A DNA stretch of 64,000 nt, taken from assembly GCA_964461055.1 (NCBI GenBank), contig CAYWSG010000006.1:7198-71197 (forward strand), written 5' to 3'. The stretch's first letter is position 1. Each line of letters begins with the position of its first letter. The translations under genes were made by a program, and so were the position numbers. This document shows, one piece after another, positions 24,139 through 39,275 of the stretch. The notes beneath the pieces were generated by a model, which was not told where the DNA came from, did not search any database, and worked only from the letters and a program-made list of their open reading frames with translations. This DNA is from an uncultured Enterobacteriaceae bacterium. GTDB taxonomy: Bacteria > Pseudomonadota > Gammaproteobacteria > Burkholderiales > SG8-39.

Positions 24139-25145
24139 GCGGCCGCCTCGTTCTCGTCCTCATCGCGCTCGCCGTCGTGGTCGGCGGGGCGGCGCTCCTC
24201 TACCAGCGCCAGGAAGCCGCGCGTCAGCCGGACTCGGCGGCGCTCCTCGGCCAGCGGATCTTCGGCGAGCTGCAGGCCGCGGAGGTCGCGGCGATCCGCA
24301 TCGTCGAGCCGGACGGGAAGCTCACCATCGAGAAGAAGGGCGACGCCTGGGTAATCCCCGAGCGCGAGGGCTTCCCGGCGGACGTGAAGGCCGTGCGCGA
24401 TTTCGTGCTCAAGGCGCTCGAGCTCAAGGTCGGCCAGAGCGAGCCGATCGGCGACAGGGACCGCGCCCGCCTCAACCTCGACGAGTCGGGCACGCGCGTG
24501 GAGTTCGCCGGCGCCGACGGCAAGCCGCTTGCGGCCATGGTGGTCGGCAAGAAGTACTTCCGCCGCGAGGTCGCCGACCCGTCGAAGGCCACGGCCGACG
24601 GCCGCTTCCTCCAGGTGCCGGACAAGACCGGCGTGGTCTACATCGTCTCCGATCCGCTCGAGCAGGCGAGCGCCGAGAGCGCGAAGTGGATCGACAAGAC
24701 CGCCTTCAAGATCGAGAAGGTCAAGAGCCTCCAGGTGCGCTTCCCGGATGGCCACAGGTGGCGCGTCGAGCGCGCGCGCGAAGATGCCGACTGGAAGCTC
24801 GAAGGCGCCCGGCCGGGCGAGAAGCTCGAGATCACCAAGGCCAATGCCGCCACGTACACGCTGAGCCTGCTCGAGCTTGCCGACGTGCCGCCGCAGGATG
24901 CGAAGGAAACCGGCCTTGCCAAGCCGATCCGCCTCGACGCCACCACCCTCGAGGGCGCTTCCTACGTTGTTCGCGTGGGCGACAAGAAGGGCGACAACTA
25001 CTACGTGTCCTTCGAGTCCACGAGCGACAAGCCGATCGACAAGCGGCTCTCGCGCTACACGCTGCTCATTCCGCAGGCCAAGCTCGACGATGCGCTGAAG
25101 CGGCGCGACGAGCTGCTCGAGAAGAAGGAAGACGGCAAGAGCTGA
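24135..25145 (+). CDS. DUF4340-like protein (usual partner of GldG-like proteins)
   Basis: 336 aa with an N-terminal TM. ATGA overlap with the GldG-like gene. Family call rests on context and the recalled pattern. Confidence 0.55.
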   Translation: MSGRLVLVLIALAVVVGGAALLYQRQEAARQPDSAALLGQRIFGELQAAEVAAIRIVEPDGKLTIEKKGDAWVIPEREGFPADVKAVRDFVLKALELKVGQSEPIGDRDRARLNLDESGTRVEFAGADGKPLAAMVVGKKYFRREVADPSKATADGRFLQVPDKTGVVYIVSDPLEQASAESAKWIDKTAFKIEKVKSLQVRFPDGHRWRVERAREDADWKLEGARPGEKLEITKANAATYTLSLLELADVPPQDAKETGLAKPIRLDATTLEGASYVVRVGDKKGDNYYVSFESTSDKPIDKRLSRYTLLIPQAKLDDALKRRDELLEKKEDGKS

Positions 25146-25343
25146 GAGGGGAATCCCGGCCTGCGCAGGCCGGCAGGCATCCCGGCCCGCCGCTCGGCCC
25201 ACCTTCTGCGGCGCAGCATTCCGTTCTGGCGCCGCCTCGCCAGAGTTGATGCCTCTTCCTCGCCGCGCCCGCCGGTCAGACGGTTGATTTGCGGGGCCCC
25301 GCAGCGCGACACTGGAGCGGTCCACCGGCTTGAGGAGGCTCCC

Positions 25344-27407
25344 GTGCCACATTCCATCAAGCGTATCCGCACGCTCGCGCTCGTAGGCCAGGCGGGGTGC
25401 GGCAAGACCTCGCTTGCCGAAGCGCTCCTCGCCGCCGCCGGCGCCATCTCTTCCCCCGGGTCCGTCGCGCGCGGCGACACGACGTGCGACTACACGCCCC
25501 TCGAGAAGACGCTGGGCCATTCGCTCAAGCTAGCCGTCGCGAGCTTCGAGGCCGAAGCGGGCGGCGAGGGCGCGAGCATCCACCTGCTCGACACGCCGGG
25601 CTACCCGGACTTCCTCGGCCACTCGCTCCCGGCGCTCGCGGCGGTGGAGACGGCGGCGATCGTCATCGACGCGCAGAAGGGCGTGGAGATGATGAGCGGG
25701 CGCTTCATGCAATGGGCGGGCCGCCGCGGGCTCGACCGCCTGGTGGTCGTGAACAAGATCGACGCGGCCGAGGGCGCCGACCTCGAGCGGCTCCTCGCGG
25801 AGATCCAGGAGGCGTTCGGCAAGGAATGCCTGCCGCTCAATCTGCCCGCCGGCAACCGCTCGCGCGTCAACGACTGCTTCTTCGCACCCTCCGGGGAGGC
25901 GGACTTCTCGTCGGTGGAGGCCGTGCACCGGCAGCTGATCGAGCAGGTCGTCGAGGTCGACGAGAAGTTCACCGAGGCGTACCTCGAGAACGGCGACGTG
26001 GATCCCGGGTCGCTGCACGAGCCGCTCGAGCGGGCGCTTCGCGAAGGACACCTCATTCCGGTCGTGTTCACTTCGGCGACCACGGGCGCCGGCGTCGCCG
26101 AGCTCCTGCAGGTCATCGTCCGCCTGCTGCCGAACCCGACCGAGGGCAACCCGCCGGCCTACATCGCCACGCCCGCCGGGGGCGGCGAGGCGAGCGAGCT
26201 CGTGCCGGTCCCGGACCCCGGCCGGCACGTGCTCGCGCACGTGTTCAAGATCGAGATCGACCCTTACGTGGGGCGGCTTGCCGTGTTCCGCGTCCATCAG
26301 GGCCGCCTGACCCCGGGAACGCAGCTCTACATCGGCGAGGGCCGAAAGCCCGTCAAGGCCGGACACCTCTACAGGCTCCGCGGCAAGCAGCAGATGGAAG
26401 TAAGCGAGGCGCTGCCCGGCGACATCTGCGCGGTGACGAAGATCGACGAGATCCGGTTCGACCACATCCTGCACGACTCGCCCGCCGACGCCCACGTGCA
26501 CGCACGGCCGCTCGAGCTGCCGGCGCCCGTGTTCGGCCTCGCGGTGCAGCCGAGGAAGCGCGGCGACGAGCAGAAGCTCTCCGACGTCCTGCACCGGATC
26601 GTCGCGGAAGATCCGTGCCTGCACATCGAGCACAACACGCAGGCGAACGAGACCGTGATCCGGGGCCTGGGCGAGATGCACCTCAAGACGCTGCTCGAGA
26701 AAATCCAGGCGCAGTACCGGCTCGACCTCGAGACCCGCCCGCCGGCCATTCCCTACCGCGAGACCGTGGCCGCCCGCGCCGACGGCCACAGCCGCCACAA
26801 GAAGCAGACCGGCGGCGCGGGGCAGTTCGGCGAGGTGTACCTGCGCGTCGAGCCGCTGCCGCGCGGGGCGGGCTTCGAGTTCGTCGACTCGGTGAAGGGC
26901 GGCGCCATTCCCAGCCAGTTCATTCCGGCGGTGGAAAAAGGCGTGCGCAACGTCATGGAGTCAGGCTTCGTCGCCGGCTATCCCCTGCAGGACGTGCGCG
27001 TGACCGTCTACGACGGCAAGAGCCACCCCGTCGATTCCAAGGAAGTGGCGTTCGTCTCGGCGGGCCGCAAGGCGTTCCTCGACGCCCTGGCAAAGGCGCG
27101 GCCGATCGTGCTCGAGCCGATCGTCAACGTGGACATCACCGCGCCCGAGGCGCGCATGGGCGACATCGCGGGCGAGCTTGCGGGCCATCGCGCGCACATC
27201 AAGGGCTCCGATACCCCGCGCGCCGGAACGGTGCAGATCACCGCGCAGGCGCCGCTCGCGGAACTGGAGAGCTTTCCGACGCGCCTGAAGTCCCTCACGG
27301 CCGGCCACGGCTCCTACCGCCTCGAGTTCAGCCACTACGAGCCCGCGCCGCCGCAGCTTCAAAGCAAGCTGAGCGCCGCCCACCGGCCGTCGGCCGGCGA
27401 AGAGTAG
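25344..27407 (+). CDS. elongation factor G paralogue (EF-G-like translational GTPase)
   Basis: GTG start 5 nt after GAGGAGG. G1 GQAGCGKTS, G3 DTPGYPDF, G4 NKID, domain IV GGAGQFG. 687 aa. Confidence 0.85.
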   Translation: MPHSIKRIRTLALVGQAGCGKTSLAEALLAAAGAISSPGSVARGDTTCDYTPLEKTLGHSLKLAVASFEAEAGGEGASIHLLDTPGYPDFLGHSLPALAAVETAAIVIDAQKGVEMMSGRFMQWAGRRGLDRLVVVNKIDAAEGADLERLLAEIQEAFGKECLPLNLPAGNRSRVNDCFFAPSGEADFSSVEAVHRQLIEQVVEVDEKFTEAYLENGDVDPGSLHEPLERALREGHLIPVVFTSATTGAGVAELLQVIVRLLPNPTEGNPPAYIATPAGGGEASELVPVPDPGRHVLAHVFKIEIDPYVGRLAVFRVHQGRLTPGTQLYIGEGRKPVKAGHLYRLRGKQQMEVSEALPGDICAVTKIDEIRFDHILHDSPADAHVHARPLELPAPVFGLAVQPRKRGDEQKLSDVLHRIVAEDPCLHIEHNTQANETVIRGLGEMHLKTLLEKIQAQYRLDLETRPPAIPYRETVAARADGHSRHKKQTGGAGQFGEVYLRVEPLPRGAGFEFVDSVKGGAIPSQFIPAVEKGVRNVMESGFVAGYPLQDVRVTVYDGKSHPVDSKEVAFVSAGRKAFLDALAKARPIVLEPIVNVDITAPEARMGDIAGELAGHRAHIKGSDTPRAGTVQITAQAPLAELESFPTRLKSLTAGHGSYRLEFSHYEPAPPQLQSKLSAAHRPSAGEE

Positions 27408-27441: not shown

Positions 27442-28254
27442 TCACGTGGCCGCGTGGCGCTCCTTGATGATGGCAAGAACCTCGTCGGGGTCGCGCCGCC
27501 ACCAGTACTCCGAGAAGATCTCGACCTCGTGCAGGCCGCCGTAGCCGGCGCCCTCCACCCAGCCGCGCAGCCGCGGCAGGTCGATGACGCCGTCGCCCAT
27601 CATGCCCCGATCGTTCAGCAGGTCGCGCGTGGGCACGAGCCAGTCGCAGATGTGGTAGGCGAGCAGCCGATCCTTGCCCGCGCGGCGGATCTGCTGCTCG
27701 AGCTTCGGATCCCACCAGACGTGATACGCGTCGACGGCGACGCCGATTCCGTCGCCCAGCTCGTCGCAGAGGTCGAGCGCGTGCTCGAGCGTGTTGATGC
27801 ACGCGCGGTCGGCGGCCTGCATGGGGTGCAGCGGCTCGATGGCGAGCGGCACGCCTGCCTGCCGCGCCTCGGGAAGGATCCGCGCGAGTCCCTCCCGCAC
27901 CTCAGCCCTCGCGCGCGGCAGGTCCCTGGAGCCCTCCGCGAGGCCGCCGACGACGAGCACGAGGCACTGGGCGCCAAGGACGTGCGCCTCCTCGATCGCC
28001 CTGCGGTTGTCGTCGAGCCATCCGGGCTTGGTGAAGAAGCCCCCGCGGCAAAGACCGCTGACCACGAGCCCGTGCTGGTCGATGAGCGCTTTCGCTTTCG
28101 CCAGGCCCAGGGCGGCGACCTGGTCCCGCCAGGGCGAGATCCCGCGGAAGCCATGCCGCGCGCAGCCCTCGATGATCTGCGCGAGGCTCCATTGCTTGCG
28201 AACCGTGGCGCCGTTCAGCGAGAGCCTGTCGGCGCCCGGCGCGGTCAGCGGCAT
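27442..28254 (-). CDS. sugar phosphate isomerase/epimerase (xylose isomerase-like TIM barrel)
   Basis: ORF 27442-28419 trimmed to MPLTAPGADRLSLNG, 270 aa. AP_endonuc_2-like pattern (LAIEPLHP, AYHICD). Overlaps the upstream gene by 10 nt. Confidence 0.75.
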   Translation of the reverse strand: MPLTAPGADRLSLNGATVRKQWSLAQIIEGCARHGFRGISPWRDQVAALGLAKAKALIDQHGLVVSGLCRGGFFTKPGWLDDNRRAIEEAHVLGAQCLVLVVGGLAEGSRDLPRARAEVREGLARILPEARQAGVPLAIEPLHPMQAADRACINTLEHALDLCDELGDGIGVAVDAYHVWWDPKLEQQIRRAGKDRLLAYHICDWLVPTRDLLNDRGMMGDGVIDLPRLRGWVEGAGYGGLHEVEIFSEYWWRRDPDEVLAIIKERHAAT

Positions 28255-29420
28255 CCGTGCAGCGCGAGCAGCTCGCGCATGCGCCGGCAGGCGAGCTCCG
28301 GGTCGGCGAGCAGGCCGGCGGCGTCCGCCAGTCGGAAGAGCTCGGCGAAATGGAGCACGTTCCTGGCCGACTGCTGGCCGCCCACCATGACGAAGTGCTC
28401 CTGGTGGCCGTTCAGCCACGCCATGAAGACGACGCCCGTCTTGTAGAAGCGGGTCGGCGCCTGGAAGATGTGGCGCGACAGGGGCACGGTCGGCTCGAGG
28501 ATCTCTCGGAACTCATTCTTCTTGTTCTCGGCGAGGAAAGACAGCGCCTGGGACGCGGCCGGAGCGATGGAATCGAAGATGCCGAGCAGCGCGTCGGAAT
28601 GGCCCTGCGCGTCGCCCTCGATCAGCTCGGCGAAGTTGAAGTCGTCGCCCGTGTACATGCGCACGCCCGCGGGCAGGCGCCGCCGCATGGCGATCTCCTT
28701 CTCCTTGTCGAGAAGCGAGATCTTGATGCCGTCGACCTTCGTCCGGTTGCGCTCGATGATCGACAAGCATACGTCCATGGCCGCCTGGTGGTCCGCCGCG
28801 CCCCAGTAGCCTGCGAGCGCCGGGTCGAACATCTCGCCCAGCCAATGGATGATGACCGGCTCCTTCACCTGGGACAGGATGCGGTCGTAGACCCGCGCGT
28901 AGTCCTCCGGCGTGCGCGCCGCCGCGGCGAGCGCGCGGCTCGCCATGAGGATGATGCGGCCGCCGAGCTTCTCGATGGCGCCGCACTGCATCTCGTAGGC
29001 GGCGACGATGTCCTCGATCGAATGCTTGCGGGCGCCGTCCAGATGATCGGTGCCCGCCCCCGAGGCGACGCGCGCGCCCGGCACATCCCGTGACATCTCC
29101 ACCGATCTGCGGACCAGCTCCAGCGAGCTCGGCCAGTCGAGGCCCATGCCGCGCTGCGCGGTGTCCATGGCCTCGGCGACGCCGAAGCCCCAGGACCAGA
29201 GGTGGCGGCGGTAGGCGAGGGTCGCGTCCCAGTCAATGGCGGCTTCGAGCCAGGGCTCGCGCGTGGAGAACGGGTCGGCGACGACGTGCGCCGCCGCGAG
29301 AGCGACGCGGGTAAACGGCTTGTCAGGCCGCCGGAAGGCCTTCGGCGCCCGGACGGCATGCTCTTCCAGCCGTCCGCCGGCCACCGGCAGCTTGATGGTG
29401 AGGATGGTATCGCGCTTCAT
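28245..29420 (-). CDS. DUF993 / dihydrodipicolinate-synthase-fold protein
   Basis: Tail of ORF 28245-30032, from MKRDTILTIKLP, 391 aa. Recognised by overall resemblance to DUF993 proteins that co-occur with Gfo/Idh/MocA and TIM-barrel genes. Confidence 0.6.
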   Translation of the reverse strand: MKRDTILTIKLPVAGGRLEEHAVRAPKAFRRPDKPFTRVALAAAHVVADPFSTREPWLEAAIDWDATLAYRRHLWSWGFGVAEAMDTAQRGMGLDWPSSLELVRRSVEMSRDVPGARVASGAGTDHLDGARKHSIEDIVAAYEMQCGAIEKLGGRIILMASRALAAAARTPEDYARVYDRILSQVKEPVIIHWLGEMFDPALAGYWGAADHQAAMDVCLSIIERNRTKVDGIKISLLDKEKEIAMRRRLPAGVRMYTGDDFNFAELIEGDAQGHSDALLGIFDSIAPAASQALSFLAENKKNEFREILEPTVPLSRHIFQAPTRFYKTGVVFMAWLNGHQEHFVMVGGQQSARNVLHFAELFRLADAAGLLADPELACRRMRELLALHGCR

Positions 29421-29437
29421 GCTTGCCTTGTCCCGCC

Positions 29438-30601
29438 TTATGCCTTGAGCCTTGGCACGTCGAGCCACTTGCGCTGCCGCCAGCTCTTCAGGCCGAGCTC
29501 CGCGAGCTGCACGCCCTTCGCGCCTTCGAGCAGATCCCAGCGAAAGCGCCTCTCTTCTCCGGCTACGTGGCGCAGGAAGAGTTCCCATTGCGCCTTGAAG
29601 GCATTGTCGTAATCCTCGTCCGGCACTTCCTTCCACCCGGCGAAGAAGTCGATGGGCTGCGGGATGTCCGGATTCCATACGGGCTTGGGCGTCTCGGCAT
29701 AGGACTGCGTGAAGCATCGGCGCAGGCCCGCCACGGCGCTGCCCTGCGTGCCGTCCACCTGCAACGTCAGGAGATCGTCGCGCCGCACGCGCACCGTCCA
29801 CGCCGAGTTGAAGTGGGCGACCACGCCCCCGGCGAGCTGGAAGGTGGCGTAGGCGGCGTCGTCCGCCGTGGCCTTGTACTTTCTTCCCGACTCGTCCCAC
29901 CGGTGCGGCACGTGCGTCGCGCCGAGGCAGCTCACGGCGCGCACCTCGCCGAACAGGTTGTCCATCACGTAGCGCCAGTGGCACAGCATGTCGAGGATGA
30001 TCCCGCCGCCGTCTTTCTTGCGGTAGTTCCACGACGGGCGCTGCGCCGGCGGCTGGCCGCGCGCCGGGTCGCCCTCGAACACCCAGTAGCCGAACTCGCC
30101 GCGCACCGACAGGATGCGCCCGAAGAAACCCTCGTCGCGCAGCTTCTTCAGCTTGAGCAGGCCCGGGAGCCAGAGCTTGTCCTGCACGACGCCGTGCTTC
30201 ACCTTCGCCTTCTTTGCCGCTGCGTACAGGCTCCTCGCCTCCGCAAGCGTGGTCGCCACCGGCTTCTCGCAGTAGACGTGCTTGCTCGCCGCGATGGCGC
30301 GCTTGAGCAGCCGGGGACGCAGGTTGGTGGACGCGGCGTCGAAGAAGATCGCATCATCGCGGCTCTTCAGCGCCGCATCGAGATCGGTCGTCCAGCGATC
30401 GATCCCGTGCTCGCGCGCGAGCGCCTCGACCTTCGCCGCGTTGCGCCCCACGAGCAGCGGGTCCGGCATGAGCCGGGTGCCGTCCCTGAGCGCGACGCCG
30501 CCCTGCTCGCGGATCGCCAGGATGGATCGAACGAGATGCTGGTTGGTGCCCATGCGGCCGGTGACGCCGTGCATGACGACGCCGATGCGCTTTTCGGTCA
30601 T
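29438..30601 (-). CDS. Gfo/Idh/MocA family oxidoreductase
   Basis: 387 aa with N-terminal nucleotide-binding [12 protein letters not shown] and the CEKPVA motif. Confidence 0.85.
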
Positions 30602-30617
30602 TTCCTGTCGTGCTCCC

Positions 30618-32039
30618 TCATTTCGTTTCCATCGGTTTCATGCGCGTCCAGTCGGGCAGCGCGCCGCTCGCGAATCCCGGGCACCCGAGCGAGCCGATGG
30701 CGAGCTCGCCGCCCGAGATCCTGAGCCGCACGGCGCCGTGGCTGCGCTCGTAGAGATCGGCATGCGCCTCGAGAAAGGCCGCCTGCTCTTCCTCGGGAAG
30801 CCCCGCCATGCCGTTCACGTAGTGGTGGCCGTTGCGCTCGACGTGCCCGAGCCCGAGCAGGGAGGCGAGCGCGAGGTCCTGCTGCACCGCGAGGCCGGCC
30901 TGCGTCGTGAGATCCTCGCCGGAGAGGAAGTAGCGGCTGGAGCCCTCCTCGCGGTTCCAGAGCTGGCAACGCGCAGCGTTGAGGATCGACTTGTAGAGGC
31001 CCTTGCAGGCCTTCGACGACACGCCGGTGTAGCCCCGGCGCCGCGCCATGGGAAACGACTCGAGCGAGTCGTCCGACTCGTCGATGATCACCGGCTTCTC
31101 CTCGGCGAGCTCCGAGACGTCCTCGGTCAGCGCGTACTCCCGCTTGATCGGCTGCTCGATGAAGGCGATGCTCGCCGCGAGCTGCTTGAGGCGCGGATCC
31201 TTTCGCACCCGCCGCCAGAGCTCGAGCACGCCCTCGGCGTCCTCGTACTGCTCGTTGCCGTCGAGGGTCGCCTGGTAGCGCCCGCCCGCGGCGGCGAAGT
31301 GGCGATCGAGCACGGCGGCGATGGCCGCGAGGCGCTCGAGGTCGGCGACCGGATCGCCGGAGACCTTCAGCTTGAACCAGCGGTGGCCGTAGCGGTGCAC
31401 CGCCTCTTCCAGCGTCTCGGGCAGGCCGTCTCCGGCGGGCGCCTGCACTTCCGCGGGCGTGAGCGGATCGACAAGCCCTACCGTATGGCGGGCGGCAATC
31501 GACGTCCGCGGCGCAAGGCCATGGAGGAACTCGTCCATGTCGAACGCCATGAGGTCGGCCTGCCAGCCCGGGGCGGTAATCCCCGGCGCGTTCCTCGCGA
31601 CCGCGTCGTAGAACGACACGCCGAGCGCCCGGCAAAGAGCGTCGAGCACGGCCCGGTCGATGAGCGCCGGTCCATAGCACGCGACGAGGCTGTTCAGGCC
31701 CTGCAGCGCGCCCATGGCGATCTGCGGCGCATAGTTGTCGATGGAATGGCCGAACGCCGTGTTGGCCGGCCCGGCGAGATAGCTCGCCTTCGCGAGCGCA
31801 AGCGAGGCCCGAAGCTGCGCGAAGTTCTCCTCGTTCGTGAGCTCCGGGCTCTTGTCGAACCACTTGGGCACCAGGAGCTCCGCCGCCCCGCCCGTGCCGG
31901 CGCGTCCGTCCTCGAGCTCGATCGCCACCCGGACGAGCGCCTGCGGCGCCTCGGTCAGCGTCACCACGCCGAAGCGAAAGGGCAGCCGCAGCTTCACGTC
32001 GCGCTCGAAGAGATCGATCGCCTTGATGACGAATCTCAT
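30618..32039 (-). CDS. atypical long enolase-superfamily protein (MLE-subgroup-like residues)
   Basis: Tail of ORF 30618-32819, from [11 protein letters not shown], 473 aa. Candidate KxK FKLKVSG, metal ligands LDGNEQY / FIEQP / IIDESD, and second Lys SSKACKG. Confidence 0.65.
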
Positions 32040-32872
32040 GCCGCCTCCAGCGCCTCGAGGATGCCGCGGACGTAGCCGATCGCCCGCGCTGCCGCGCCGG
32101 GACCGTCGGGCACGTAGTCGAACGGCTCCACGGCGAGGTCCCCCGCGTAGCCGAGCCGCTTCAGCGCCGCGAGAAGGGGCGCGAAGCGCTGCTCGCCCTG
32201 CCCCGGGCCCCTTCGGTTCGGATCGTTCAGCTGCACGTGCGCGATCATTCCGGCAGGGAGCCAGCGCTCGACGAGCGCGTGCAGGGGCTCGCGCTCCATC
32301 CGGGCGGCGGCGCTGCAGTCGAGCATCGTGCGCACGCTCGCCGAGCCGATCGAGGCCACCATCGCCGCGGCCTCCGCCAGCGTGTTGAGGAGCGGCGTCT
32401 GCGGCGCCCCGAGCGGCTCGATGCAGTACACGACGCCGGCCTTCGCGGCGCGCTCGGCCACGCGGGCAAAGCATTCCTGGGCGCGGGCGAGGGCTGCTTC
32501 GCGCGTGTCGCCCTCGTCGATGCGCCGCTGCTGCGGCGAGCCGTGCACGAGGTAGCGCCCGCCGAGCGCGGCGCACAGGTCGACGAGCGCGAGCATCACC
32601 TCGACGGTCCGCTGCCGCGTGGCGTCGTCCCGCGTGCTGATCGACAGGCCGGCCGGCTTGACGAGCAGCCAGTGAAGCCCCGTGATCGCAATGCCCGCCT
32701 GCGCCGCGGCCCGACGGGCCGCGCTCACCTCGGCCTCGCTCATCCGATGCGGCGCCTCGGCGAGCGTGTAGGGCGCGACTTCGAGGCCATCGTAGCCGAG
32801 CGTCCTCGCGAGCGCGCATTGCTCGGCGAACGGCATGGCGCCGAGGACCTCGTTGCAGAGCGCGACCCTCAT
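32036..32872 (-). CDS. sugar phosphate isomerase/epimerase (xylose isomerase-like TIM barrel)
   Basis: ORF trimmed to MRVALCNEVLG, 278 aa. ATGA overlaps at both ends (TetR upstream, enolase-like downstream). Confidence 0.75.
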   Translation of the reverse strand: MRVALCNEVLGAMPFAEQCALARTLGYDGLEVAPYTLAEAPHRMSEAEVSAARRAAAQAGIAITGLHWLLVKPAGLSISTRDDATRQRTVEVMLALVDLCAALGGRYLVHGSPQQRRIDEGDTREAALARAQECFARVAERAAKAGVVYCIEPLGAPQTPLLNTLAEAAAMVASIGSASVRTMLDCSAAARMEREPLHALVERWLPAGMIAHVQLNDPNRRGPGQGEQRFAPLLAALKRLGYAGDLAVEPFDYVPDGPGAAARAIGYVRGILEALEAA

Positions 32873-33501
32873 GCCGCCTTGCGCATCGCGTGGAGGATCA
32901 TGCTCGCGTTGTGCCGCGCCCGGGCGGCAAGCGCGCGCGGATGCATGAGGTCGCGGCCGAAGATGCGGGAGAGCGTGAAGCGGTTGCTGAGGTAGAAATA
33001 GCACTCGCCGGCGATCGAGATGTAGAGCTGCACCGGATCCACCCCGCGCCGGAAGAGCCCTTCGCGCTCGCCGCGGCGCAGGATGTGGCGGAGCGTACCG
33101 ACGAGCGGCGAATGGATCTCGCGCACGCGGCGCGAGCGGGCCACGTGGCGGCCCTTGTGCAGGTTCTCGCTGTTCAGGAGCGTCATGAACTCGGGATGCT
33201 CGAGGAAATAGCGCCAGGTGAAGGCGACGAGCCGCCTCAGCGCCTCGCGCGGATCCTTGTGCTCGAGGTCGAGCGAGCGCTCGGCCGCCCGGATGCGCGC
33301 ATAGCTCTCCTCCAGGACCGCGAGGAAGAGGTCCTCCTTCGCGCCGAAGTAGTGGTAGAGCATCCGCTTGTTGACCCTGGCGAGCGCGGCGATGCGATCG
33401 ACCCGCGCGCCGCCGAGGCCGTGGCGCGCGAACTCGCTCGTCGCCGCCTCGAGGATCCGCCGTCGCGTGCGCTCGGGGTCGCGGGCGCCGTTCGTCCGCA
33501 T
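32869..33501 (-). CDS. TetR/AcrR family transcriptional regulator
   Basis: 210 aa with HTH GGARVDRIAALARVNKRMLYHYF. Paralogue of the TetR at 45931-46641. Confidence 0.9.
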   Translation of the reverse strand: MRTNGARDPERTRRRILEAATSEFARHGLGGARVDRIAALARVNKRMLYHYFGAKEDLFLAVLEESYARIRAAERSLDLEHKDPREALRRLVAFTWRYFLEHPEFMTLLNSENLHKGRHVARSRRVREIHSPLVGTLRHILRRGEREGLFRRGVDPVQLYISIAGECYFYLSNRFTLSRIFGRDLMHPRALAARARHNASMILHAMRKAA

Positions 33502-33508
33502 GCCGGCC

Positions 33509-34300
33509 TCATTCCATCCCGAGCAGCCGGTACACCCGCCTCGTGTACTCGCCGAAGCGCTCCTGGGTCTTGACGTCGAGCGTGCGCGGGTGAGGGAGCT
33601 CCACCGGGAAGTTGTCGGCCATGCGCGCGGGCCCGGCCGTCAGCACGACGACACGCGTGCCGAGGAAGACCGCCTCGGAGATGCCGTGCGTGACGAAGAC
33701 GATCGTCTTGCCCGACTCCTTCCAGATGCGCAGGAGCTCCAGGTTCATCTTCTCGCGCGTGAGCGCGTCGAGCGCGCCGAAGGGCTCGTCCATCAGGACG
33801 AGCTTCGGGTCGTGCACGAGCGCGCGCGCGATAGCGGCGCGCTGCTGCATGCCGCCCGAGAGTTCGTAGGGGTACTTGTCCTCGTAGCCGGAGAGGCCGA
33901 CGAGCGCGAGGAGCGCGCGCGCGCGCTCGCGCGCCTCGGCGGCCGGCAGGCCGAGGATCTCGGCCGGCAGCAGCACGTTCTGCAGGATGCGGCGCCACTT
34001 CAGAAGGAGCGGCGCCTGGAACACCATGCCGACGTCGCGCGCCGGGTCGAAGGGATGCTCGGCCGAGCCGATGCGCACCTCGCCGCCGTCGTGCTCGTGC
34101 AGGCCGGCGAGGACCTTGAGGAGCGTCGACTTGCCGCAGCCCGAGGGCCCCACCAGCGACACGAGCTCGCCCGGCATCACGTCGAACGTCGCATCGGAGA
34201 TGGCGAGATGCTCCTCCTTCCCGCGCCGGTAGACCTTGCGCACGCCGGCCAGGTGTATGAAGGGCTCGCGCGCCCCCGTCGTCGAATGCATGTCCTTCAT
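33509..34300 (-). CDS. ABC transporter ATP-binding protein (NitT/TauT nitrate/sulfonate/bicarbonate family)
   Basis: 263 aa. Walker A GPSGCGKST, signature LSGGMQQR, Walker B LVLMDEPF. Confidence 0.9.
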   Translation of the reverse strand: MKDMHSTTGAREPFIHLAGVRKVYRRGKEEHLAISDATFDVMPGELVSLVGPSGCGKSTLLKVLAGLHEHDGGEVRIGSAEHPFDPARDVGMVFQAPLLLKWRRILQNVLLPAEILGLPAAEARERARALLALVGLSGYEDKYPYELSGGMQQRAAIARALVHDPKLVLMDEPFGALDALTREKMNLELLRIWKESGKTIVFVTHGISEAVFLGTRVVVLTAGPARMADNFPVELPHPRTLDVKTQERFGEYTRRVYRLLGME

Positions 34301-34306
34301 GCGCGG

Positions 34307-35065
34307 CTAGGCGAGGCGCGCGTCCTTCGGCACGAGCAGGCGCTCGAGCAGGAGCACGATGCCGTAGAGAACCATGCCGATCAGGGTGATGAGCAGCACC
34401 GCCATGAACATGGCCGGCGTGTCGAGCGTCACCTGCACCTGGAGCATCAGGTAGCCGAGGCCTTTGTCGGAGCCGAGGAACTCGCCCACGATCGCGCCGG
34501 CGACGGCGAGGATGGCCGCCACCTTCATGCCGGAGAAGATGTAGGGCAGCGCGCCGGGAAGCTGGATCTTGGTGAAGAGCTGCCAGCGCGAGCCCTTCAG
34601 CGAGCGCACGAGGTCGAGAAGCTCCGGCTCGATCTCGCGCAGGCCGCGCGCGGTGGTGAGCAGGATCGGGAACACGCAGATCGAGAAGGCCATGAGCGTG
34701 TTCGGGAAGATGCCGTACTTGAACCACACGATGATGAGCGGGCCGAGCGCCACCTTCGGGATCATGTTGAGCGAGACGAAGAGCGGCATGAAGAACGCCT
34801 CGAGCGGCTTCGACCAGGTGAAGGCGAGCGCCAGGGCCACGCCCACCACCAGGGCGATGAAGTAGCCGCCGAAGATCTCGGTGGCGGTCACGGAGACGTT
34901 GCGCCACCAGTCGTAGTTCGGCTCGAGGAGGGCCTCCAGCGTCGCCCCGGGCGAGGGCATGACGAACTTGGGGACCTCCCCCAGCTTCACGAACAGGTAC
35001 CAAGCGACGATGAGCGCCACGTGCGCGAGCACGGCGAGCGTGATGCGTCCCCATTTGGCGTTCAT
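34307..35065 (-). CDS. ABC transporter permease (NitT/TauT family, BPD_transp_1)
   Basis: ORF trimmed to MNAKWGRITLAVL, 252 aa. EAA-type loop TTARGLREIEPELLDLVRSLKGSRWQLFTKIQLPGALP. Confidence 0.85.
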   Translation of the reverse strand: MNAKWGRITLAVLAHVALIVAWYLFVKLGEVPKFVMPSPGATLEALLEPNYDWWRNVSVTATEIFGGYFIALVVGVALALAFTWSKPLEAFFMPLFVSLNMIPKVALGPLIIVWFKYGIFPNTLMAFSICVFPILLTTARGLREIEPELLDLVRSLKGSRWQLFTKIQLPGALPYIFSGMKVAAILAVAGAIVGEFLGSDKGLGYLMLQVQVTLDTPAMFMAVLLITLIGMVLYGIVLLLERLLVPKDARLA

Positions 35066-35110
35066 GCCGGCCTCCCTGCTGTGATGGACGACGACAACCC
35101 GGCTTGACGA

Positions 35111-35138
35111 TGTAACTATCCGGTTACCCGATGGTAAC
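35111..35138. promoter_or_regulatory. candidate operator in the divergent permease/binding-protein control region
   Basis: TGTAAC-N6-GTTACC-cgat-GGTAAC. This includes a 6-bp inverted repeat with a 4-nt spacer plus a third half-site. It is the only AT-richer patch in the 103-nt intergenic region; TTGACG lies at 35104-35109. Confidence 0.4.
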
Positions 35139-35168
35139 ATCGCGACCATCTTCAACGAGGAGGCTCAC

Positions 35169-36176
35169 ATGCGAAATGTTGCAGGCATCGCCGCCGCTGC
35201 CGCGCTGGCGACCCTGGCCGTCCCGGCGGCCGCCCAGCAGAAGCTCGACTTCGTGCTGAACTGGGTGCCCGGCGGCGACCATGCGCCCTACTACTACGCC
35301 AAGCAGCAGGGCTGGTACGCCAAGGAGGGGATCGATCTCAACATCGAGCCCGGCAAGGGCTCGGCGCTCGCGGTGCAGAAGGTGGGCGCGGGGCAGAACC
35401 CGGTCGGCCTCGCGGACATGGCCAACGTGCTCACGCTGCGCGGCAAGGGCGCCGACGCGGTGGGCGTGTTCAACGTGTACGCGAACTCGCCGCAGGGCAT
35501 GTACTGGAAGAAAAGCTCCGGCATCAAGGGCATCAAGGACTTCCCCGGCAAGAAGATCGGCAACCCCGCGGCCGATGGCGCGCGCACCATGTGGCCGGCC
35601 CTCGCCAAGGCGAACGGCATCGACCCGAAGTCGGTCACCTGGGTGAACGTCGACGCGAACGCGAAGCTGGCGGCGCTCAAGGCGGGCTCGATCGACGTGA
35701 CGACCTCGTTCTACAACATCCACCACATCTTCCAGCGCGAGCTCGGCGCCGACATGGGCTTCCTCGCCTGGCGCGACGTAGGGCTCAATCCCTACGGCAA
35801 CTCGGTGATCGTCAACGGCGAGTTCCTAAAGGCGAACCGCCCGCTCATCGGCAAGTTCGTCGCCGTGACCCAGCGCGCCTTCGCCGCCTGCGTCGAGGCT
35901 CCGGAGCCCTGCGTCAAGGCGCTCGTCGCGGCGAACGGGGCGCTCAAGTTCGACAACGAGCTCACCAACTGGAAGCTCGTCGAGGTGCTGATGAGCGACA
36001 AGATCTCGCAGACGGTGGCGCTCGGCTGGCACGACGACGCGCGCATGAAGTCCGACTACGAGCTGGTGCGCGACTACGTCGGCATCGAGAAGCCGTACGA
36101 CGTGAAGAGCGCGTACACCAACCAGTTCCTCGACAAGTCGATCAAGATGAAGGCGGTCAAGGCGCCGGACGCCTGA
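35169..36176 (+). CDS. ABC transporter substrate-binding protein (NMT1/THI5-like, SsuA/TauA/ThiY family)
   Basis: 335 aa. Signal peptide, LNWVPGGDHAPYYYA motif, and GAGGAGG Shine-Dalgarno. Confidence 0.85.
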   Translation: MRNVAGIAAAAALATLAVPAAAQQKLDFVLNWVPGGDHAPYYYAKQQGWYAKEGIDLNIEPGKGSALAVQKVGAGQNPVGLADMANVLTLRGKGADAVGVFNVYANSPQGMYWKKSSGIKGIKDFPGKKIGNPAADGARTMWPALAKANGIDPKSVTWVNVDANAKLAALKAGSIDVTTSFYNIHHIFQRELGADMGFLAWRDVGLNPYGNSVIVNGEFLKANRPLIGKFVAVTQRAFAACVEAPEPCVKALVAANGALKFDNELTNWKLVEVLMSDKISQTVALGWHDDARMKSDYELVRDYVGIEKPYDVKSAYTNQFLDKSIKMKAVKAPDA

Positions 36177-36726
36177 CGAGCCGCCTTAGCCAATCGCGAA
36201 GCCTGCGGGTCCACGCGCGACCCGCAGGCGCTTCTTCCTTCAGCGAAGTCTTGAGCTCCGGCGGCTTTCCCGGCTCCGGAGCCTGCGGCCCGGACGCGCC
36301 GCCCGCAAAGCGCTTCTCCAGGCAATCGGCGAACTGGGCGGTCCGCTCGGTCGCCCGCTTCTCGAACAGCCGGTCGACGATCGGCTTCAGCTGCCCCGTC
36401 CCGGTGACGTCGAACACGCTCACGAGCGTCGTGCCGCGCCCGGCCGGCTCGAGCGCCACGTCGATGACCATGGTGAGGTGCTCGGCCTTCGCCACCGCGT
36501 GCAGGCGCCGCGGCGGGTCCTCCGACTCGATGACGGCGCGCAGCGTCAGGACCATCGGGATGACGCCGACCTTCTCCCTCACCGTGACGTCGGCGCTGCG
36601 ATCGTCGATCGGCTCGATTCGCTCCACCCCCGGGATGCACGTGCAGAGCGACCGGAAGTCGCGCAGGAAGCGCCATAGCGCCTCGGGCGAGGCGTCAACC
36701 GCGATCCGCGCTTCGCGCCGCGGCAC
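36157..36726 (-). CDS. SRPBCC-fold protein (CoxG-like)
   Basis: 189 aa. GTG start immediately follows the upstream stop. ARIAVDASPEALWRFLRDF pattern and a Pro/Arg-rich tail. Convergent 20-nt overlap with the binding-protein gene. Confidence 0.6.
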   Translation of the reverse strand: MPRREARIAVDASPEALWRFLRDFRSLCTCIPGVERIEPIDDRSADVTVREKVGVIPMVLTLRAVIESEDPPRRLHAVAKAEHLTMVIDVALEPAGRGTTLVSVFDVTGTGQLKPIVDRLFEKRATERTAQFADCLEKRFAGGASGPQAPEPGKPPELKTSLKEEAPAGRAWTRRLRDWLRRLVRRPAP

Positions 36727-38298
36727 TCAGCCCCACCACTTCGGAAGCTTGTAGTCCTCGGCGAGGATGCCGGCCGCGTTGTGCCCCGCACCCGCATGCA
36801 CGCCGCCGCCCGGGTGGCAGTAGCCGCCGCACATGTACAGGCCCTCCACGGGCGAGCGATAGCCCGACCAGCCGGCGAACGGCCGGAAGTAGCCCATCTG
36901 GTCCGGCGTCATGTCGCCCACCACGTCGACCCCGTTCACCATGTTGTCGTTGTGCCGCTCGGTGTCGGTCGGGTCCTGGATCGTCATGGCGAGGATCCTG
37001 TCCTTCGTCATGTTGGGCGCATAGCGTCGCCAGAGCCCGAGGCAGTGCTCGGCGTACTCCTCCCGCACCTTCTTCCAGCCGGCCGCGCCTTCCGGCGCCA
37101 CGGCGTAGGGCGCGTATTGCCAGATGAGCGCGGTGTGCTTGCCCGCGGGCGCCTGCGAGGGATCGAAAAGCGTCGGCACCGTGATCTGCAGCATCTCCCG
37201 GCGGGGCGGCCTGCCCGCGGCAATCTCCTGGTAGGCCTCGACCTGGTCGGCCACCCGGCCGCAGAACATCTCCTGGCTGAAGGCGCGCTCGACGTGCGAA
37301 TTGTGCGCCGCCGCCGTGTAGCGGGGCGGCTCGGACAGCGCGAGGTGCAGGCAGAAGAGCGAGCGGCCGCGCGAGTGGTAGTTCTTCACCCGCGTCACGA
37401 AGGCCTCCGGCAAATGCTCTTCGCCGACGAGCTGCAGGAAGCTCTTCTTCGGCTCGACGTTCGTGATCACCGCCTTGGCGGCCTGCACCCGGGTACCGTC
37501 CGTGAGCTCGACGCCGCTCGCCCGGTTTCCGGAGACGAGCACGCGCTTCACCTCCGCGCCGGTCCTCACCTCCCCGCCCGCGCCCTCGAGCGCGCGGCGC
37601 ATGCCCTCGGCCAGCTGCTGCGAGCCGCCCACGCAGATCGGCGCCTCGGCCTTCAGGATGCGGAAGAGGCAGATCCAGCCCTGCCCGTAGGCATCCGGCG
37701 GAAAGCCGAGCACCGTCATGCGCGCGAGCATGTGCACCCTGACCTCCTCGCTCTCGAAGAGCTCCTCGAGGAGCTGGACCGGCGTCGCCGCCTGCCACTG
37801 CATCAGGGCGCGTCCCTCCTCGGACTTCTCGAGCTCGGCGGTCTGCATCGACGGCGGCAGCGGCGGCGAATACATGAGCGGCAGGTACGTCGAGTCGATG
37901 AACTCGCCGTAGTCCTCCACGAGCTGCGTGAAGGTCCTGGCGTCGCGCGCCGAGAACTTCGCGATCTCGGCGGCCATGCGCTCGGGCTCCCGGTACATCA
38001 CGAGACAGCGCTGGTCGGGGAAGATCGTTCCCCTCAGGTAGTCGGGATAGACGTATTTCACGCCGTGGCGCTCGAGCTCGAGATCGCGGTAGACCGGGCT
38101 CAGCGGGATGTGCGTGTGCACCATCGAGCAGATGTTGTGCCTGAACCCCGGAAGCGTCGCCTCCTCGGTGTGGCAGCTGCCGCCGACGCGACGGTTGCGC
38201 TCGAGCACGAGCACCCTGGCGCCGGCGCGGGCGAGGTAGCCCGCGCAGGCGAGCCCGTTGTGCCCCGAGCCGATGACGATGAAATCGTACGTGGCCAT
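36727..38298 (-). CDS. NAD(P)/FAD-dependent oxidoreductase (phytoene desaturase/CrtI-like family)
   Basis: 523 aa with Rossmann DFIVIGSGHNGLACAGYLARAGARVLVLE. Confidence 0.8.
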   Translation of the reverse strand: MATYDFIVIGSGHNGLACAGYLARAGARVLVLERNRRVGGSCHTEEATLPGFRHNICSMVHTHIPLSPVYRDLELERHGVKYVYPDYLRGTIFPDQRCLVMYREPERMAAEIAKFSARDARTFTQLVEDYGEFIDSTYLPLMYSPPLPPSMQTAELEKSEEGRALMQWQAATPVQLLEELFESEEVRVHMLARMTVLGFPPDAYGQGWICLFRILKAEAPICVGGSQQLAEGMRRALEGAGGEVRTGAEVKRVLVSGNRASGVELTDGTRVQAAKAVITNVEPKKSFLQLVGEEHLPEAFVTRVKNYHSRGRSLFCLHLALSEPPRYTAAAHNSHVERAFSQEMFCGRVADQVEAYQEIAAGRPPRREMLQITVPTLFDPSQAPAGKHTALIWQYAPYAVAPEGAAGWKKVREEYAEHCLGLWRRYAPNMTKDRILAMTIQDPTDTERHNDNMVNGVDVVGDMTPDQMGYFRPFAGWSGYRSPVEGLYMCGGYCHPGGGVHAGAGHNAAGILAEDYKLPKWWG

Positions 38299-38308
38299 GC
38301 CGGAGGCC

Positions 38309-39265
38309 TCAGTTGGTCCCCGCGCCGACCGATCTTGCGATCTTGTCGATCTTCGCCACCTCGGCGGCGAGGAACTTGCCGAGCGCCTCGGGCGTGCTCG
38401 TCTCCGCGTCGGTGCCGAAGGAAAGGAAGCGCGCCTTCATCTCCGGCGTGGACATCGCCTTGACGATCTCGCGATTGAGGCGCTCGACGACCGCCTTCGG
38501 CATTCCGGCCGGTCCGACGATCGCCTGCCAGGTCGAGAAGGAGAAGTTCGGGTAGCCGGACTCGGCGAGGGTCGGCACCTCGGGCACGACCGCCGAGCGC
38601 TTCGGCGTGGTCACCGCGATGGGCGTCAGGCGGCCCGCCTTGACCTGCTGGATGACGTCCGAGATGTTCGCGAACATCACCTGGGCGTTGCCGCCGAGGA
38701 GGTCCTGCATCGCGGGCGCGCCGCCCTTGTAGTGCACCGTGACCCAGTCGATCCCGGCGACCTGCTTGAACATCTCGCCCGAGAGGCGCGTGAGCGTGGT
38801 CGCCCCGGGCGAAGCCATGTTGAGCTTGCCGGGGTTCGCCTTGGAGTAGGCGATCAGCTCCCGCGGCGTCTTGGCCGGCACCGAAGGATGGACGACGGCG
38901 AGAATCGGCACCGTGGCGACGAGGCTCACCGGGGTGAAGTCCTTGACGGGATCCCAGGAGAGATTCTCGAAGAACGCAGGCGAGGTCGCGAACGAAGTCG
39001 CTGCGACGAGCAGCGTATAGCCGTCGGGAGCCGAGCGCGCGACCTGCTCCGCCGCGATGTTGCCGCTCGCGCCCGGCTTGTTCTCCACCACCACCGTCTG
39101 CCCGAGCGCCTGCGAGAGCTTCTCGCTCAGCGCGCGCGCCGAGAGATCCGTCGAGCCGCCCGGCGGGAAGCCGACGACGAAGCGGATCGGGCGCGCGGGA
39201 TAGCTCTGCGCCTGGACGAGCGTGGCCGCGAGCGCGGCGATCAGGAAGAATGCAAGGCGTTTCAT
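38309..39265 (-). CDS. Bug-family (TctC-like) substrate-binding protein
   Basis: 318 aa with a signal peptide and the FPPGGSTD motif. Confidence 0.9.
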   Translation of the reverse strand: MKRLAFFLIAALAATLVQAQSYPARPIRFVVGFPPGGSTDLSARALSEKLSQALGQTVVVENKPGASGNIAAEQVARSAPDGYTLLVAATSFATSPAFFENLSWDPVKDFTPVSLVATVPILAVVHPSVPAKTPRELIAYSKANPGKLNMASPGATTLTRLSGEMFKQVAGIDWVTVHYKGGAPAMQDLLGGNAQVMFANISDVIQQVKAGRLTPIAVTTPKRSAVVPEVPTLAESGYPNFSFSTWQAIVGPAGMPKAVVERLNREIVKAMSTPEMKARFLSFGTDAETSTPEALGKFLAAEVAKIDKIARSVGAGTN

Positions 39266-39275
39266 CGGTGCCTCC

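Follow-up and report, generated by a model that had tools for sequence, protein, structure and literature searches.

A co-conserved Gfo/Idh/MocA, DUF993 and TIM-barrel operon with a possible role in polyhydroxy-carboxylate catabolism

In the non-phosphorylative Entner-Doudoroff (npED) pathway of archaea, a 2-keto-3-deoxy-(6-phospho)gluconate (KD(P)G) aldolase of the dihydrodipicolinate synthase/N-acetylneuraminate lyase (DHDPS/NAL) family is used together with a glycerate 2-kinase. The bacterial Weimberg and Dahms pathways employ a Gfo-type aldose 1-dehydrogenase, an enolase-superfamily aldonate dehydratase and a DHDPS-family keto-deoxy-pentonate dehydratase. Oxidative catabolism of uronates and aldarates runs through Udh, Gli, Gci, KdgD and KGSADH in Agrobacterium, and through GudD or GarD, GarL, GarR and GarK in E. 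coli. The operon described here lies in a 64,000-nucleotide stretch of contig CAYWSG010000006.1 (the window), from an uncultured bacterium. Eight genes encode the permease and ATPase of an ATP-binding cassette (ABC) importer, a TetR-family regulator, two triosephosphate isomerase (TIM) barrels, a and b, an enolase-superfamily enzyme, a Gfo/Idh/MocA oxidoreductase and a DUF993 (PF06187) protein; the binding protein of the importer is encoded divergently. The module is a real, strongly co-conserved catabolic operon for which no published function was found. A tentative reading, given a probability of roughly 0.42, is that it is a TetR-repressed operon for the oxidative, non-phosphorylative catabolism of a small polyhydroxy-carboxylate, i.e., an acid sugar or a sugar first oxidised to one. 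Gene content, co-conservation, folds and conserved catalytic residues are observations, whereas the kind of substrate, the sequence of steps and all the reactions are inferred.

Like the npED, Weimberg and Dahms systems, the window has a Gfo/Idh/MocA dehydrogenase, an enolase-superfamily member and a putative DHDPS/NAL-fold lysine enzyme in corresponding roles, and no sugar kinase. A relative in Paracoccus adds a Thermoproteus-type glycerate 2-kinase and an aldehyde dehydrogenase. Unlike those systems, no window protein is orthologous to a characterised enzyme in NCBIfam searches, the enolase-superfamily member is optional, an AP_endonuc_2 TIM barrel with no counterpart there is obligatory, and the transporters suggest that an acid, not a neutral sugar, is imported. 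The uronate route is also similar in kind, with its dehydrogenase, isomerase, MLE-type enolase-superfamily enzyme, DHDPS-family enzyme and aldehyde dehydrogenase, as is the alternative aldarate scheme of dehydratase, aldolase, tartronate semialdehyde reductase and glycerate kinase. Structure searches with window proteins place keto-deoxy-galactarate dehydratase and glucarate/talarate dehydratases near them. Some relatives of the operon carry genes like those for tartronate semialdehyde reductase, glycerate kinase and succinate semialdehyde dehydrogenase (SSADH), and transport by TctABC, a di-/tricarboxylate type, occurs among them. In contrast to the described uronate and aldarate routes, each step here would fall to a different family or to a very distant relative, no window protein matches the KdgD or GudD model, and a link to pectin is seen in one relative locus only, from Chloroflexi. 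A uronate or aldarate as the actual substrate is an unlikely special case of the acid-sugar reading.

The extent of the conserved unit was examined by comparison of gene neighbourhoods. A pattern scan with one genome per species gave at least 597 loci with a DUF993 relative, of which the 80 best were retained. The nine window proteins were mapped onto these 80 loci and onto three annotated plasmid loci, 54 loci being fully flanked (at least 8 kb on both sides); in all, 94 related loci (designated by L numbers) were compared. In the species-representative set, 68 of the 76 loci with room for it have a Gfo orthologue immediately upstream of DUF993 and in the same orientation, and 59 of 70 have TIM barrel b immediately downstream. 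Such co-conservation of the trio is far beyond chance. The Gfo-DUF993-TIM barrel b order is kept in Alpha- and Betaproteobacteria, Firmicutes and Chloroflexi, with the Gfo-DUF993 pair only in Actinobacteria, and the core trio is held together across at least four bacterial phyla. The other genes are less constant. Among the fully flanked loci, TetR orthologues (45-79% identity) were found in 37, the enolase-like gene in 34, a NitT-type binding protein in 19 and TIM barrel a in 15, in 13 of which it adjoins the enolase-like gene. In Firmicutes and Chloroflexi the regulator is swapped, with AraC or LacI in place of TetR; for example, the regulator gene that precedes the trio is of the AraC type in Paenibacillus, Sediminibacillus, Lederbergia, Caldibacillus and Brevibacillus, and of the LacI type in a Roseiflexaceae metagenome-assembled genome (MAG). 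Transport in this group falls to sugar ABC, Opp-type ABC or major facilitator systems. These counts identify the Gfo-DUF993-TIM barrel b trio as the conserved entity, and TetR, the enolase/TIM barrel a module and the transporter as lineage-variable additions. An earlier, sequence-only reading of the window had proposed one eight-gene unit. The neighbourhood comparison over the 94 loci upholds a tight unit with co-conserved genes, and narrows what is conserved from all eight to the trio, usually with TetR. The window is the fullest proteobacterial version of the cluster. Carriers of the module include rhizobia, Bradyrhizobium, Burkholderiales, Rhodospirillales, Paracoccus, Paenibacillus and other Bacillales, Arthrobacter, Streptomyces and Chloroflexi.

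DUF993 matches its Pfam model over residues 9-389 with 620.5 bits (cut-off 24) and is 68% identical to PDB entry 4dnh (S. meliloti SMc04132, labelled 'uncharacterized'; 2.5e-171); no NCBIfam model matches it. The family has at least 8000 clusters at 90% identity, of which a handful of full-length clusters is left at 50% identity, and the many clusters at the one level and few at the other make it both widespread and slow-evolving. Identity between Alpha- and Betaproteobacteria is 60-80%. This constraint is unusually strong for a catabolic enzyme and could be a sign of an obligate complex with Gfo, its translationally coupled partner.

The DUF993 protein looks like a divergent member of the DHDPS/NAL fold. 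Its AlphaFold2 (AF2) model was poor, with a predicted local distance difference test score (pLDDT) of 58.6, because the alignment took in near-identical homologues only, and it was used solely for fold ranking. After 4dnh, the top Foldseek matches listed were all DHDPS, NanA, YagE or keto-deoxy-galactarate dehydratase (KdgD), with E values from 8e-08 to 2.5e-05 and template modelling (TM) scores of 0.37-0.46. The Prokaryotic Genome Annotation Pipeline (PGAP) also names DUF993 orthologues 'dihydrodipicolinate synthase family protein'. The invariant lysine 233 is placed at the end of predicted strand 229-235 (strand 6 of the pLDDT 58.6 model). By hhalign, residues 227-260 align with residues 155-188 of E. 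coli DapA (reference sequence verified against 1dhp), so that GIK233...YTGDD falls on GIK161...LSGDD, although at an E value of 0.056 that is not significant. The spacing from the lysine to the GDD motif is identical in the two proteins, with YTGDD 27 residues past K233, and a second, weak co-linear segment places D86-T87 on G43-T44 of DapA. A profile search of DUF993 against the PDB returned 4dnh only. Since neither hhalign nor the profile search gave a significant match to DHDPS, sequence alone is no proof of membership; K233 is nevertheless a probable Schiff-base lysine. The earlier remark that the operon encodes no kinase or aldolase of standard sugar routes holds for sugar kinases, and is doubtful for aldolases in view of this fold and the invariant K233.

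The Gfo enzyme has three Pfam domains in the expected architecture, an N-terminal Rossmann domain and a C-terminal alpha/beta domain, and its translation contains the catalytic motifs EKP (HVYCEKP) and D-x3-H (LDMLCHW). An orthologous PDB entry exists (3oqb, 2e-171, unannotated). The next nearest characterised proteins are levoglucosan dehydrogenase (6a3f, 6.9e-18), scyllo-inositol/L-glucose dehydrogenase and 1,5-anhydrofructose reductase; the nearest characterised relatives act on ring hydroxyls or hemiacetals of hexoses and cyclitols. TIM barrel b has orthologous PDB entries in 3ju2/3qc0 (SMc04130, 3e-101) and 7vpf (1.2e-69), the sequence of the latter being identical to that of a Paenibacillus periandrae protein that is encoded inside a trio, and its nearest characterised relative is IolI (2e-06). 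TIM barrel a resembles ketose 3-epimerases and hydroxypyruvate isomerases. Its weak NCBIfam matches are to psicose 3-epimerase, IolO, hydroxypyruvate isomerase and 2-oxo-tetronate isomerase, and its PDB neighbours are ketose 3-epimerases (1e-14).

A Gfo-type NAD enzyme with AP_endonuc_2 TIM barrels is also the combination found in LgdA-LgdB1/B2-LgdC, YcjS-YcjR and CarA/DgpA-CarBC, and an analogy with the oxidise-then-eliminate chemistry of such levoglucosan, 3-keto-glycoside and C-glycoside systems had been drawn from the sequence. Under that scheme the Gfo enzyme would convert a glycoside or anhydro-sugar to a 3-keto sugar, the TIM barrels would carry out beta-elimination and hydration, and DUF993 would be auxiliary. 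The kinship of Gfo fits, and TIM barrel a is weakly like 3-keto-glucoside 4-epimerase (6wn6, 4e-04). In Firmicutes and Chloroflexi, extra Gfo + AP_endonuc_2 pairs and GH42, GH4, GH51-like or GH29-like genes occur near the trio; proteobacterial loci have no glycosidases, and glycoside hydrolases are not regular neighbours of the trio. Model scores fall far short of the cut-offs, with 69.7 bits against 650 for levoglucosan dehydrogenase and 19.1 against 750 for glycoside 3-dehydrogenase (BT_2158 family). The known systems act on neutral glycosides and contain neither DUF993 nor an enolase-superfamily member, whereas that partner and the TctABC or NitT transporters point here to a carboxylate, and the scheme leaves DUF993, the most conserved member and one with a Schiff-base-type lysine, no role. 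The analogy stands as conceivable, lacks specific support and is distinctly unlikely to describe this operon. Myo-inositol catabolism shares IolG-like and IolI/IolE/IolO-like families with the window, IolG being among the proteins nearest to Gfo. It differs in that the IolG model scores 61.3 bits against 355, neither window TIM barrel matches IolE (NCBIfam), and the window operon has no IolD, IolB, IolC, IolJ or IolA by Pfam. Inositols, moreover, are neutral compounds, and what the enolase and TctABC components imply is a carboxylate. A thiamine diphosphate (ThDP) enzyme encoded beside tetR in five Burkholderiales loci was considered as an IolD and rejected; it matches a generic ThDP subfamily (PRK08199), with no IolD model among the 25 best NCBIfam matches listed.

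The enolase-like protein (473 residues) is a divergent member of its superfamily. It scores 33.0 bits against MR_MLE_C (cut-off 29.4), its best NCBIfam match is muconate cycloisomerase (1.9e-07), and a PDB search gave no close solved relative. A Foldseek search with its AF2 model (pLDDT 71) retrieved mandelate racemase/muconate lactonizing enzymes (MR/MLE), dipeptide epimerases, glucarate and talarate dehydratases, as well as 3,6-anhydro-L-galactonate cycloisomerase. E values were about 1e-13 (5e-14 to 5e-12), with identities of 12-20% and target-normalised TM scores of 0.55-0.70. Together with MR_MLE_C these matches identify the capping domain and modified TIM barrel that are characteristic of the enolase superfamily. 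Invariant or nearly so are K223-x-K225 (FKLKV), D260, E295, D320 (DES) and K343, which by position in the pLDDT 71 model are at the ends of predicted strands 221-225, 256-260, 291-295, 317-321 and 339-343. In the superfamily, three carboxylate metal ligands end strands 3-5 and the acid/base lysines are on strands 2 and 6. Enolase-superfamily enzymes abstract the alpha-proton of a carboxylate, and since this catalytic set appears to be kept, the substrate of the enolase-like protein should be a carboxylic acid. Its family, too, is large, with at least 8000 clusters at 90% identity.

The importer belongs to the NitT/TauT family, with an NMT1/SsuA-type binding protein, a SsuC/TauC/NtrB-type permease and a TauB-type ATPase. 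The binding protein matches SsuA_fam under the NCBIfam cut-off (1.2e-18), and its nearest PDB entries are 4nmy, an unnamed solute-binding protein, and ThiY/THI5. For the permease the nearest models are SaoP, SsuC, NtrB and TauC, all under cut-off, and for the ATPase the taurine ABC ATP-binding subunit (3.3e-60), under the equivalog cut-off. Because the equivalog cut-offs for sulfonate, taurine, nitrate and SaoXPA are missed by wide margins, no substrate can be transferred to the window importer. The transporter also changes from locus to locus. De novo clustering of the remaining open reading frames (ORFs) put TctA/TctB/TctC in the transporter position in about 18 loci, and sugar ABC, Opp-type ABC and aromatic-acid-type major facilitator superfamily (MFS) transporters occur in other orthologous clusters. 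The importer being interchangeable, a 'sulfonate-like' substrate is not implied. The sequence-only reading thus had the importer family right by Pfam and NCBIfam, and its hint of a sulfonate, nitrate or pyrimidine substrate is rejected. An anionic, carboxylate substrate fits better; the alternation with TctABC and the aromatic-acid/H+ symporter-type MFS are both in keeping with an anion.

A quinate/shikimate-like pathway for a hydroaromatic compound or a cyclitol carboxylate, with enzymes of non-canonical families, could instead be served by the operon. In such a route Gfo would oxidise a ring hydroxyl as IolG does, DUF993 would be a Schiff-base dehydratase (an analogue of type I dehydroquinase) and TIM barrel b a dehydratase (3-dehydroshikimate dehydratase- or IolE-like), with an aromatic acid as product. 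TctABC and NitT-type systems carry terephthalate and phthalate, and the AP_endonuc_2 family includes IolE and dehydroshikimate dehydratases. The MFS protein of Brevibacillus best matches the aromatic-acid/H+ symporter family (TIGR00895 5e-71, PcaK 1e-38), and IolI, the nearest characterised relative of TIM barrel b, and muconate cycloisomerase, the best NCBIfam match of the enolase-like protein, would also suit. This Brevibacillus massiliensis operon (L092 5243-12126) is minimal, with AraC, the MFS gene and the trio, followed by a short gene of the aromatic-amino-acid-lyase family (PF00221). TIM barrel b has, however, no specific similarity to dehydroshikimate dehydratases that a PDB search could detect, no ring-cleavage dioxygenase adjoins the cluster at any locus examined, and Foldseek puts DUF993 near DHDPS/NAL rather than AroD. 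Glycerate kinase, tartronate-semialdehyde-reductase-like and hydroxyacid dehydrogenase neighbours would also be left unexplained, and a hydroaromatic pathway is quite improbable.

The operon is probably TetR-controlled, with release by an effector predicted. The 103-nt spacer between the divergent binding-protein gene and the permease contains an imperfect palindrome with 17-nt arms (82% complementary) and the core GTTACCcgatGGTAAC, which is a candidate TetR operator. The operator suggested earlier at 35111-35138 falls within this palindrome, as located by a repeat search, and its operator role is a prediction. Palindromes of the related TGGTTAAC or TTCACCA type precede tetR by about 40-70 nt in L016, L017, L056, L057, L060, L075, L077 and L083, their likeness amounting to a loose half-site resemblance; the strict operator pattern ATGTWAC-N15-21-GTWACAT had no occurrence outside the window in the related loci searched. 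A sulfonate/nitrate-type importer and unrelated enzymes might also stand side by side by chance, the eight genes not forming one pathway. The varying transporter type among relatives would agree with this, as would a simple promoter scan of the region, which found no sigma-70-like promoter. Chance adjacency is nevertheless highly improbable given that all eight genes are joined by short overlaps (4-10 nt) or by gaps no longer than 17 nt, that the NitT-type transporter/enolase/Gfo/DUF993/TIM barrel b order is repeated in Chelatococcus, Bradyrhizobium, Variovorax, Microvirga and Burkholderiales MAGs, and that the TetR gene sits inside the operon with the palindrome in its promoter region.

Genes beside the trio in relatives, rare but found in unconnected lineages, offer hints of the later steps. 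On the Paracoccus pantotrophus plasmid pPAN1 (L094 7820-16581) the order is Gfo-DUF993-TIM barrel b-glycerate 2-kinase-TetR, and a CUT2 sugar ABC transporter and an aldehyde dehydrogenase of the SSADH-like kind are encoded alongside. This version, on a mobilizable 100-kb plasmid, is the most complete and would be a good experimental model. An aldehyde dehydrogenase gene is directly upstream of the Gfo-DUF993 pair on a pAO1-like plasmid of Arthrobacter. Five betaproteobacterial loci have a beta-hydroxyacid dehydrogenase nearest to threonate dehydrogenase/tartronate semialdehyde reductase, located 60-150 nt upstream of Gfo in L025 and L082. Three Firmicutes have a D-2-hydroxyacid (hydroxypyruvate/glyoxylate-reductase-like) dehydrogenase within a few kb of the trio, directly past TIM barrel b in L090 only. 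Canonical DHDPS-family and NAD-epimerase/dehydratase genes recur in Rhodospirillales-type loci, and in a Chloroflexi locus a PL22 oligogalacturonate lyase and a GH4 enzyme are encoded close to the trio.

Other neighbours appear more incidental. A PfkB kinase and a ribokinase upstream of the Bradyrhizobium clusters were rejected as pathway members; they are confined to one genus and divergently placed, and so are probably inherited synteny. A MetE-like gene (cobalamin-independent methionine-synthase family, about 350 residues) adjoins the cluster in beta- or alphaproteobacterial loci (L008 662-1678, L012 529-1608, L038 7637-8641 and L059 3163-4245), and L059 and L008 also have a second, canonical MR/MLE enolase-superfamily gene. 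On a plasmid of Streptomyces sp. NBC_00557 (L085 9001-19182), a lone DUF993 gene is directly upstream of a type I polyketide synthase, with Gfo/TIM partners far off; it may have been recruited into secondary metabolism.

A second type of DUF993 cluster has a short-chain dehydrogenase/reductase (SDR), not Gfo, next to DUF993, the Gfo genes being elsewhere in L009 and L096. Its members encode a FadX-like CoA-transferase, the SDR, an acyl-CoA dehydrogenase, an enoyl-CoA hydratase, an electron transfer flavoprotein (ETF) and a glycerate kinase, and are found on S. meliloti pSymA (L093 3173-12774, which adds a TIM barrel), in Bosea (L052 6880-11164), in L009 10001-16242 and on a metagenomic contig (L096 55-4931). 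The DUF993 subfamily concerned is about 59% identical to the window protein. Such clusters hint that the same chemistry has a branch linked to CoA. The main function might even be a CoA-linked route by way of a beta-keto acid, with a deoxy or short acid sugar as its substrate and comparable to oxidative deoxyribonate catabolism: Gfo or the SDR would form a beta-keto acid, DUF993 would cleave a C-C bond or decarboxylate, and the products would be CoA esters and glycerate. The recurrence of DUF993 with these genes (L059 is a further case) and another divergent DUF993 member beside an acyl-CoA synthetase-type gene speak for it. CoA genes are absent, however, from the window and most trio loci, they may mark a paralogous function of that subfamily, and nothing here favours a beta-keto over an alpha-keto substrate, which makes the CoA-linked route improbable for the window.

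The acid-sugar route brings together the carboxylate-dependent enolase partner, the anion-type transporters, a dehydrogenase, a metal-dependent TIM barrel and a DHDPS/NAL-like lysine enzyme, and is further suggested by genes, present in some relatives, that would take a C3 aldehyde or semialdehyde on to glycerate and then to phosphoglycerate. In outline, the NMT1-type binding protein and its ABC partners (TctABC or another carrier elsewhere) would import an anionic substrate, and an effector would free TetR from the palindrome in the divergent promoter. The Gfo/Idh/MocA enzyme would then oxidise a ring or hemiacetal C-OH with NAD(P)+, and TIM barrel b, as a metal-dependent AP_endonuc_2 protein, would isomerise or beta-eliminate beside the new carbonyl to give a keto-deoxy acid. 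DUF993 would bind this keto acid through a Schiff base at K233 and cleave (or dehydrate) it, yielding pyruvate and a C2-C3 aldehyde or semialdehyde, which enzymes encoded elsewhere could convert to glycerate and phosphoglycerate, or to 2-oxoglutarate. The enolase-superfamily enzyme and TIM barrel a may form an optional side entry, in which alpha-proton abstraction from a related carboxylate (an epimer, lactone or aldarate/aldonate) would dehydrate or epimerise it into the same trunk.

A number of observations weigh against this route. The DUF993-DHDPS comparisons by hhalign, with E values of 0.056-0.084 for shallow and 94-sequence alignments, are not significant, and the Pfam DHDPS model (PF00701) has no match to DUF993 at E values of 0.01 or less. 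The catalytic Tyr133 of DHDPS seems to be replaced by His192, as judged by motif position only, and the AF2 model of DUF993 is poor (pLDDT 59). No window enzyme reaches the NCBIfam equivalog cut-off for a step of a known pathway. The S. meliloti and Firmicutes versions adjoin neutral-sugar-type ABC transporters, glycerate kinase and aldehyde dehydrogenase neighbours are rare (2-3 of 94 loci), and the CoA-type DUF993 cluster is not predicted by a simple aldolase end-game.

A broader proposal gives DUF993 itself the central place, as the signature enzyme of an undescribed, very widespread pathway. It would be a DHDPS-like Schiff-base barrel, with His for Tyr, that catalyses an uncatalogued C-C cleavage or dehydration. 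Its substrate would be an abundant acid sugar from plants or soil, such as a uronate/aldarate, a C4-C6 keto-deoxy acid or an ulosonic acid. It would require its Gfo and TIM-barrel partners, and a paralogous branch would be connected to CoA-dependent beta-oxidation. In this full form the proposal is doubtful.

A cluster on a pAO1-like Arthrobacter plasmid, with a sugar ABC transporter, an aldehyde dehydrogenase, Gfo (56% identity) and DUF993 (50% identity), is similar to the window operon and differs from it in having no TIM barrel b, TetR or enolase-like gene. For the 'oxidative xylose' cluster on pAO1 of Arthrobacter nicotinovorans (Mihasan et al. 2013, Res Microbiol 164:22) the evidence was reportedly expression- and growth-based. 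We know of no other published proposal that concerns an orthologous Gfo-DUF993 pair, and as far as can be verified this one gives no reaction for DUF993. The structural-genomics style PDB entries 4dnh, 3ju2/3qc0, 3oqb and 7vpf, all orthologous, are unannotated. A literature search gave no paper that mentions, or assigns a function to, DUF993, PF06187 or PDB codes 7VPF, 3OQB, 4DNH, 3JU2 and 3QC0, although such absence is no proof. SMc04129-SMc04134 are mentioned incidentally, in expression tables of transcriptome or regulatory-network papers. The pAO1 'oxidative xylose' paper is cited in PMC6305408. The view that the trio has no assigned pathway agrees with these results, and an experimentally assigned pathway for orthologous clusters was likewise absent from the literature searched, which again proves nothing by itself.

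With four PDB entries (three proteins) and several genetically tractable hosts at hand, the module is a worthwhile target. Assignment of the substrate would annotate thousands of genes at once and add a carbon-cycling route in soil and rhizosphere bacteria, possibly with a new reaction of the DHDPS/NAL superfamily. Catabolic operons built from these superfamilies are well known, so no principle would be overturned; the operon is a good, not a revolutionary, target for pathway discovery and holds no conceptual surprise.

The features of the locus are collected in the table. Since the window is about 70% G+C, its ORF lists are crowded with shadow frames, and genes were called by third-position GC phase and inspection of start codons; families were assigned by Pfam and NCBIfam searches of the window proteins. 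The layout first proposed, eight tightly spaced minus-strand genes (27442-35065) and a divergent binding protein, was borne out in its coordinates, gaps and overlaps, and every family then named was confirmed by these searches. From permease to TIM barrel b the gene junctions measure +6, +7, -4, -4, +16, +17 and -10 nt. GGGAGG precedes the permease ATG at 35065, and a terminator-like hairpin is present 3' of the binding-protein gene (36201-36229).

Table. Positions, strands and supporting matches of the operon features in the window
Feature	Positions	Strand	Match or method
NMT1/SsuA-like periplasmic solute-binding protein	35169-36176	+	Pfam NMT1 1.6e-46
Imperfect 35-bp palindrome, candidate TetR operator	35108-35142		repeat search
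NitT/TauT-type ABC permease	34307-35065	-	BPD_transp_1 1.8e-29
ABC ATPase	33509-34300	-	ABC_tran 1.1e-31
TetR-family regulator	32869-33501	-	TetR_N 1.8e-13 + TetR_C_29 3.8e-47
TIM barrel a, accessory	32036-32872	-	AP_endonuc_2 2.4e-34
Divergent enolase-superfamily enzyme, MLE/MR-like, accessory	30618-32039	-	MR_MLE_C 6.3e-08
Gfo/Idh/MocA NAD(P) oxidoreductase, core	29438-30601	-	GFO_IDH_MocA N- and C-terminal Pfam domains
DUF993 (PF06187), core	28245-29420	-	DUF993 1.4e-186
TIM barrel b, core	27442-28254	-	AP_endonuc_2 5.1e-36

The genes on either side are unrelated to the operon, which therefore ends where the sequence-only reading had placed its limits. On one side an elongation factor G (EF-G) paralogue (25284-27407, plus strand) converges on it, and on the other are CoxG and an FAD oxidoreductase (36157-38298, minus strand). 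Proteins identical to the DUF993 and enolase-like proteins are present in a 'Burkholderiales bacterium' MAG, as found by a 90%-cluster search. Before the EF-G paralogue, the region 22267-25145 (plus strand) encodes a GldG-like pair of auxiliary ABC proteins, one of the ABC_transp_aux/DUF7088 type and the other of the DUF4340 type. Beyond the oxidoreductase, two tandem orphan receptors of the TctC/Bug type are encoded on the minus strand at 38309-39265 and 39276-40241 (Pfam TctC 2.4e-72 and 7.2e-68). Neither TctA nor TctB adjoins them (38309-40241), as is typical of the Bug-receptor expansion of Burkholderiales; their presence in the window is of note in that orthologous DUF993 clusters often use TctABC transport.

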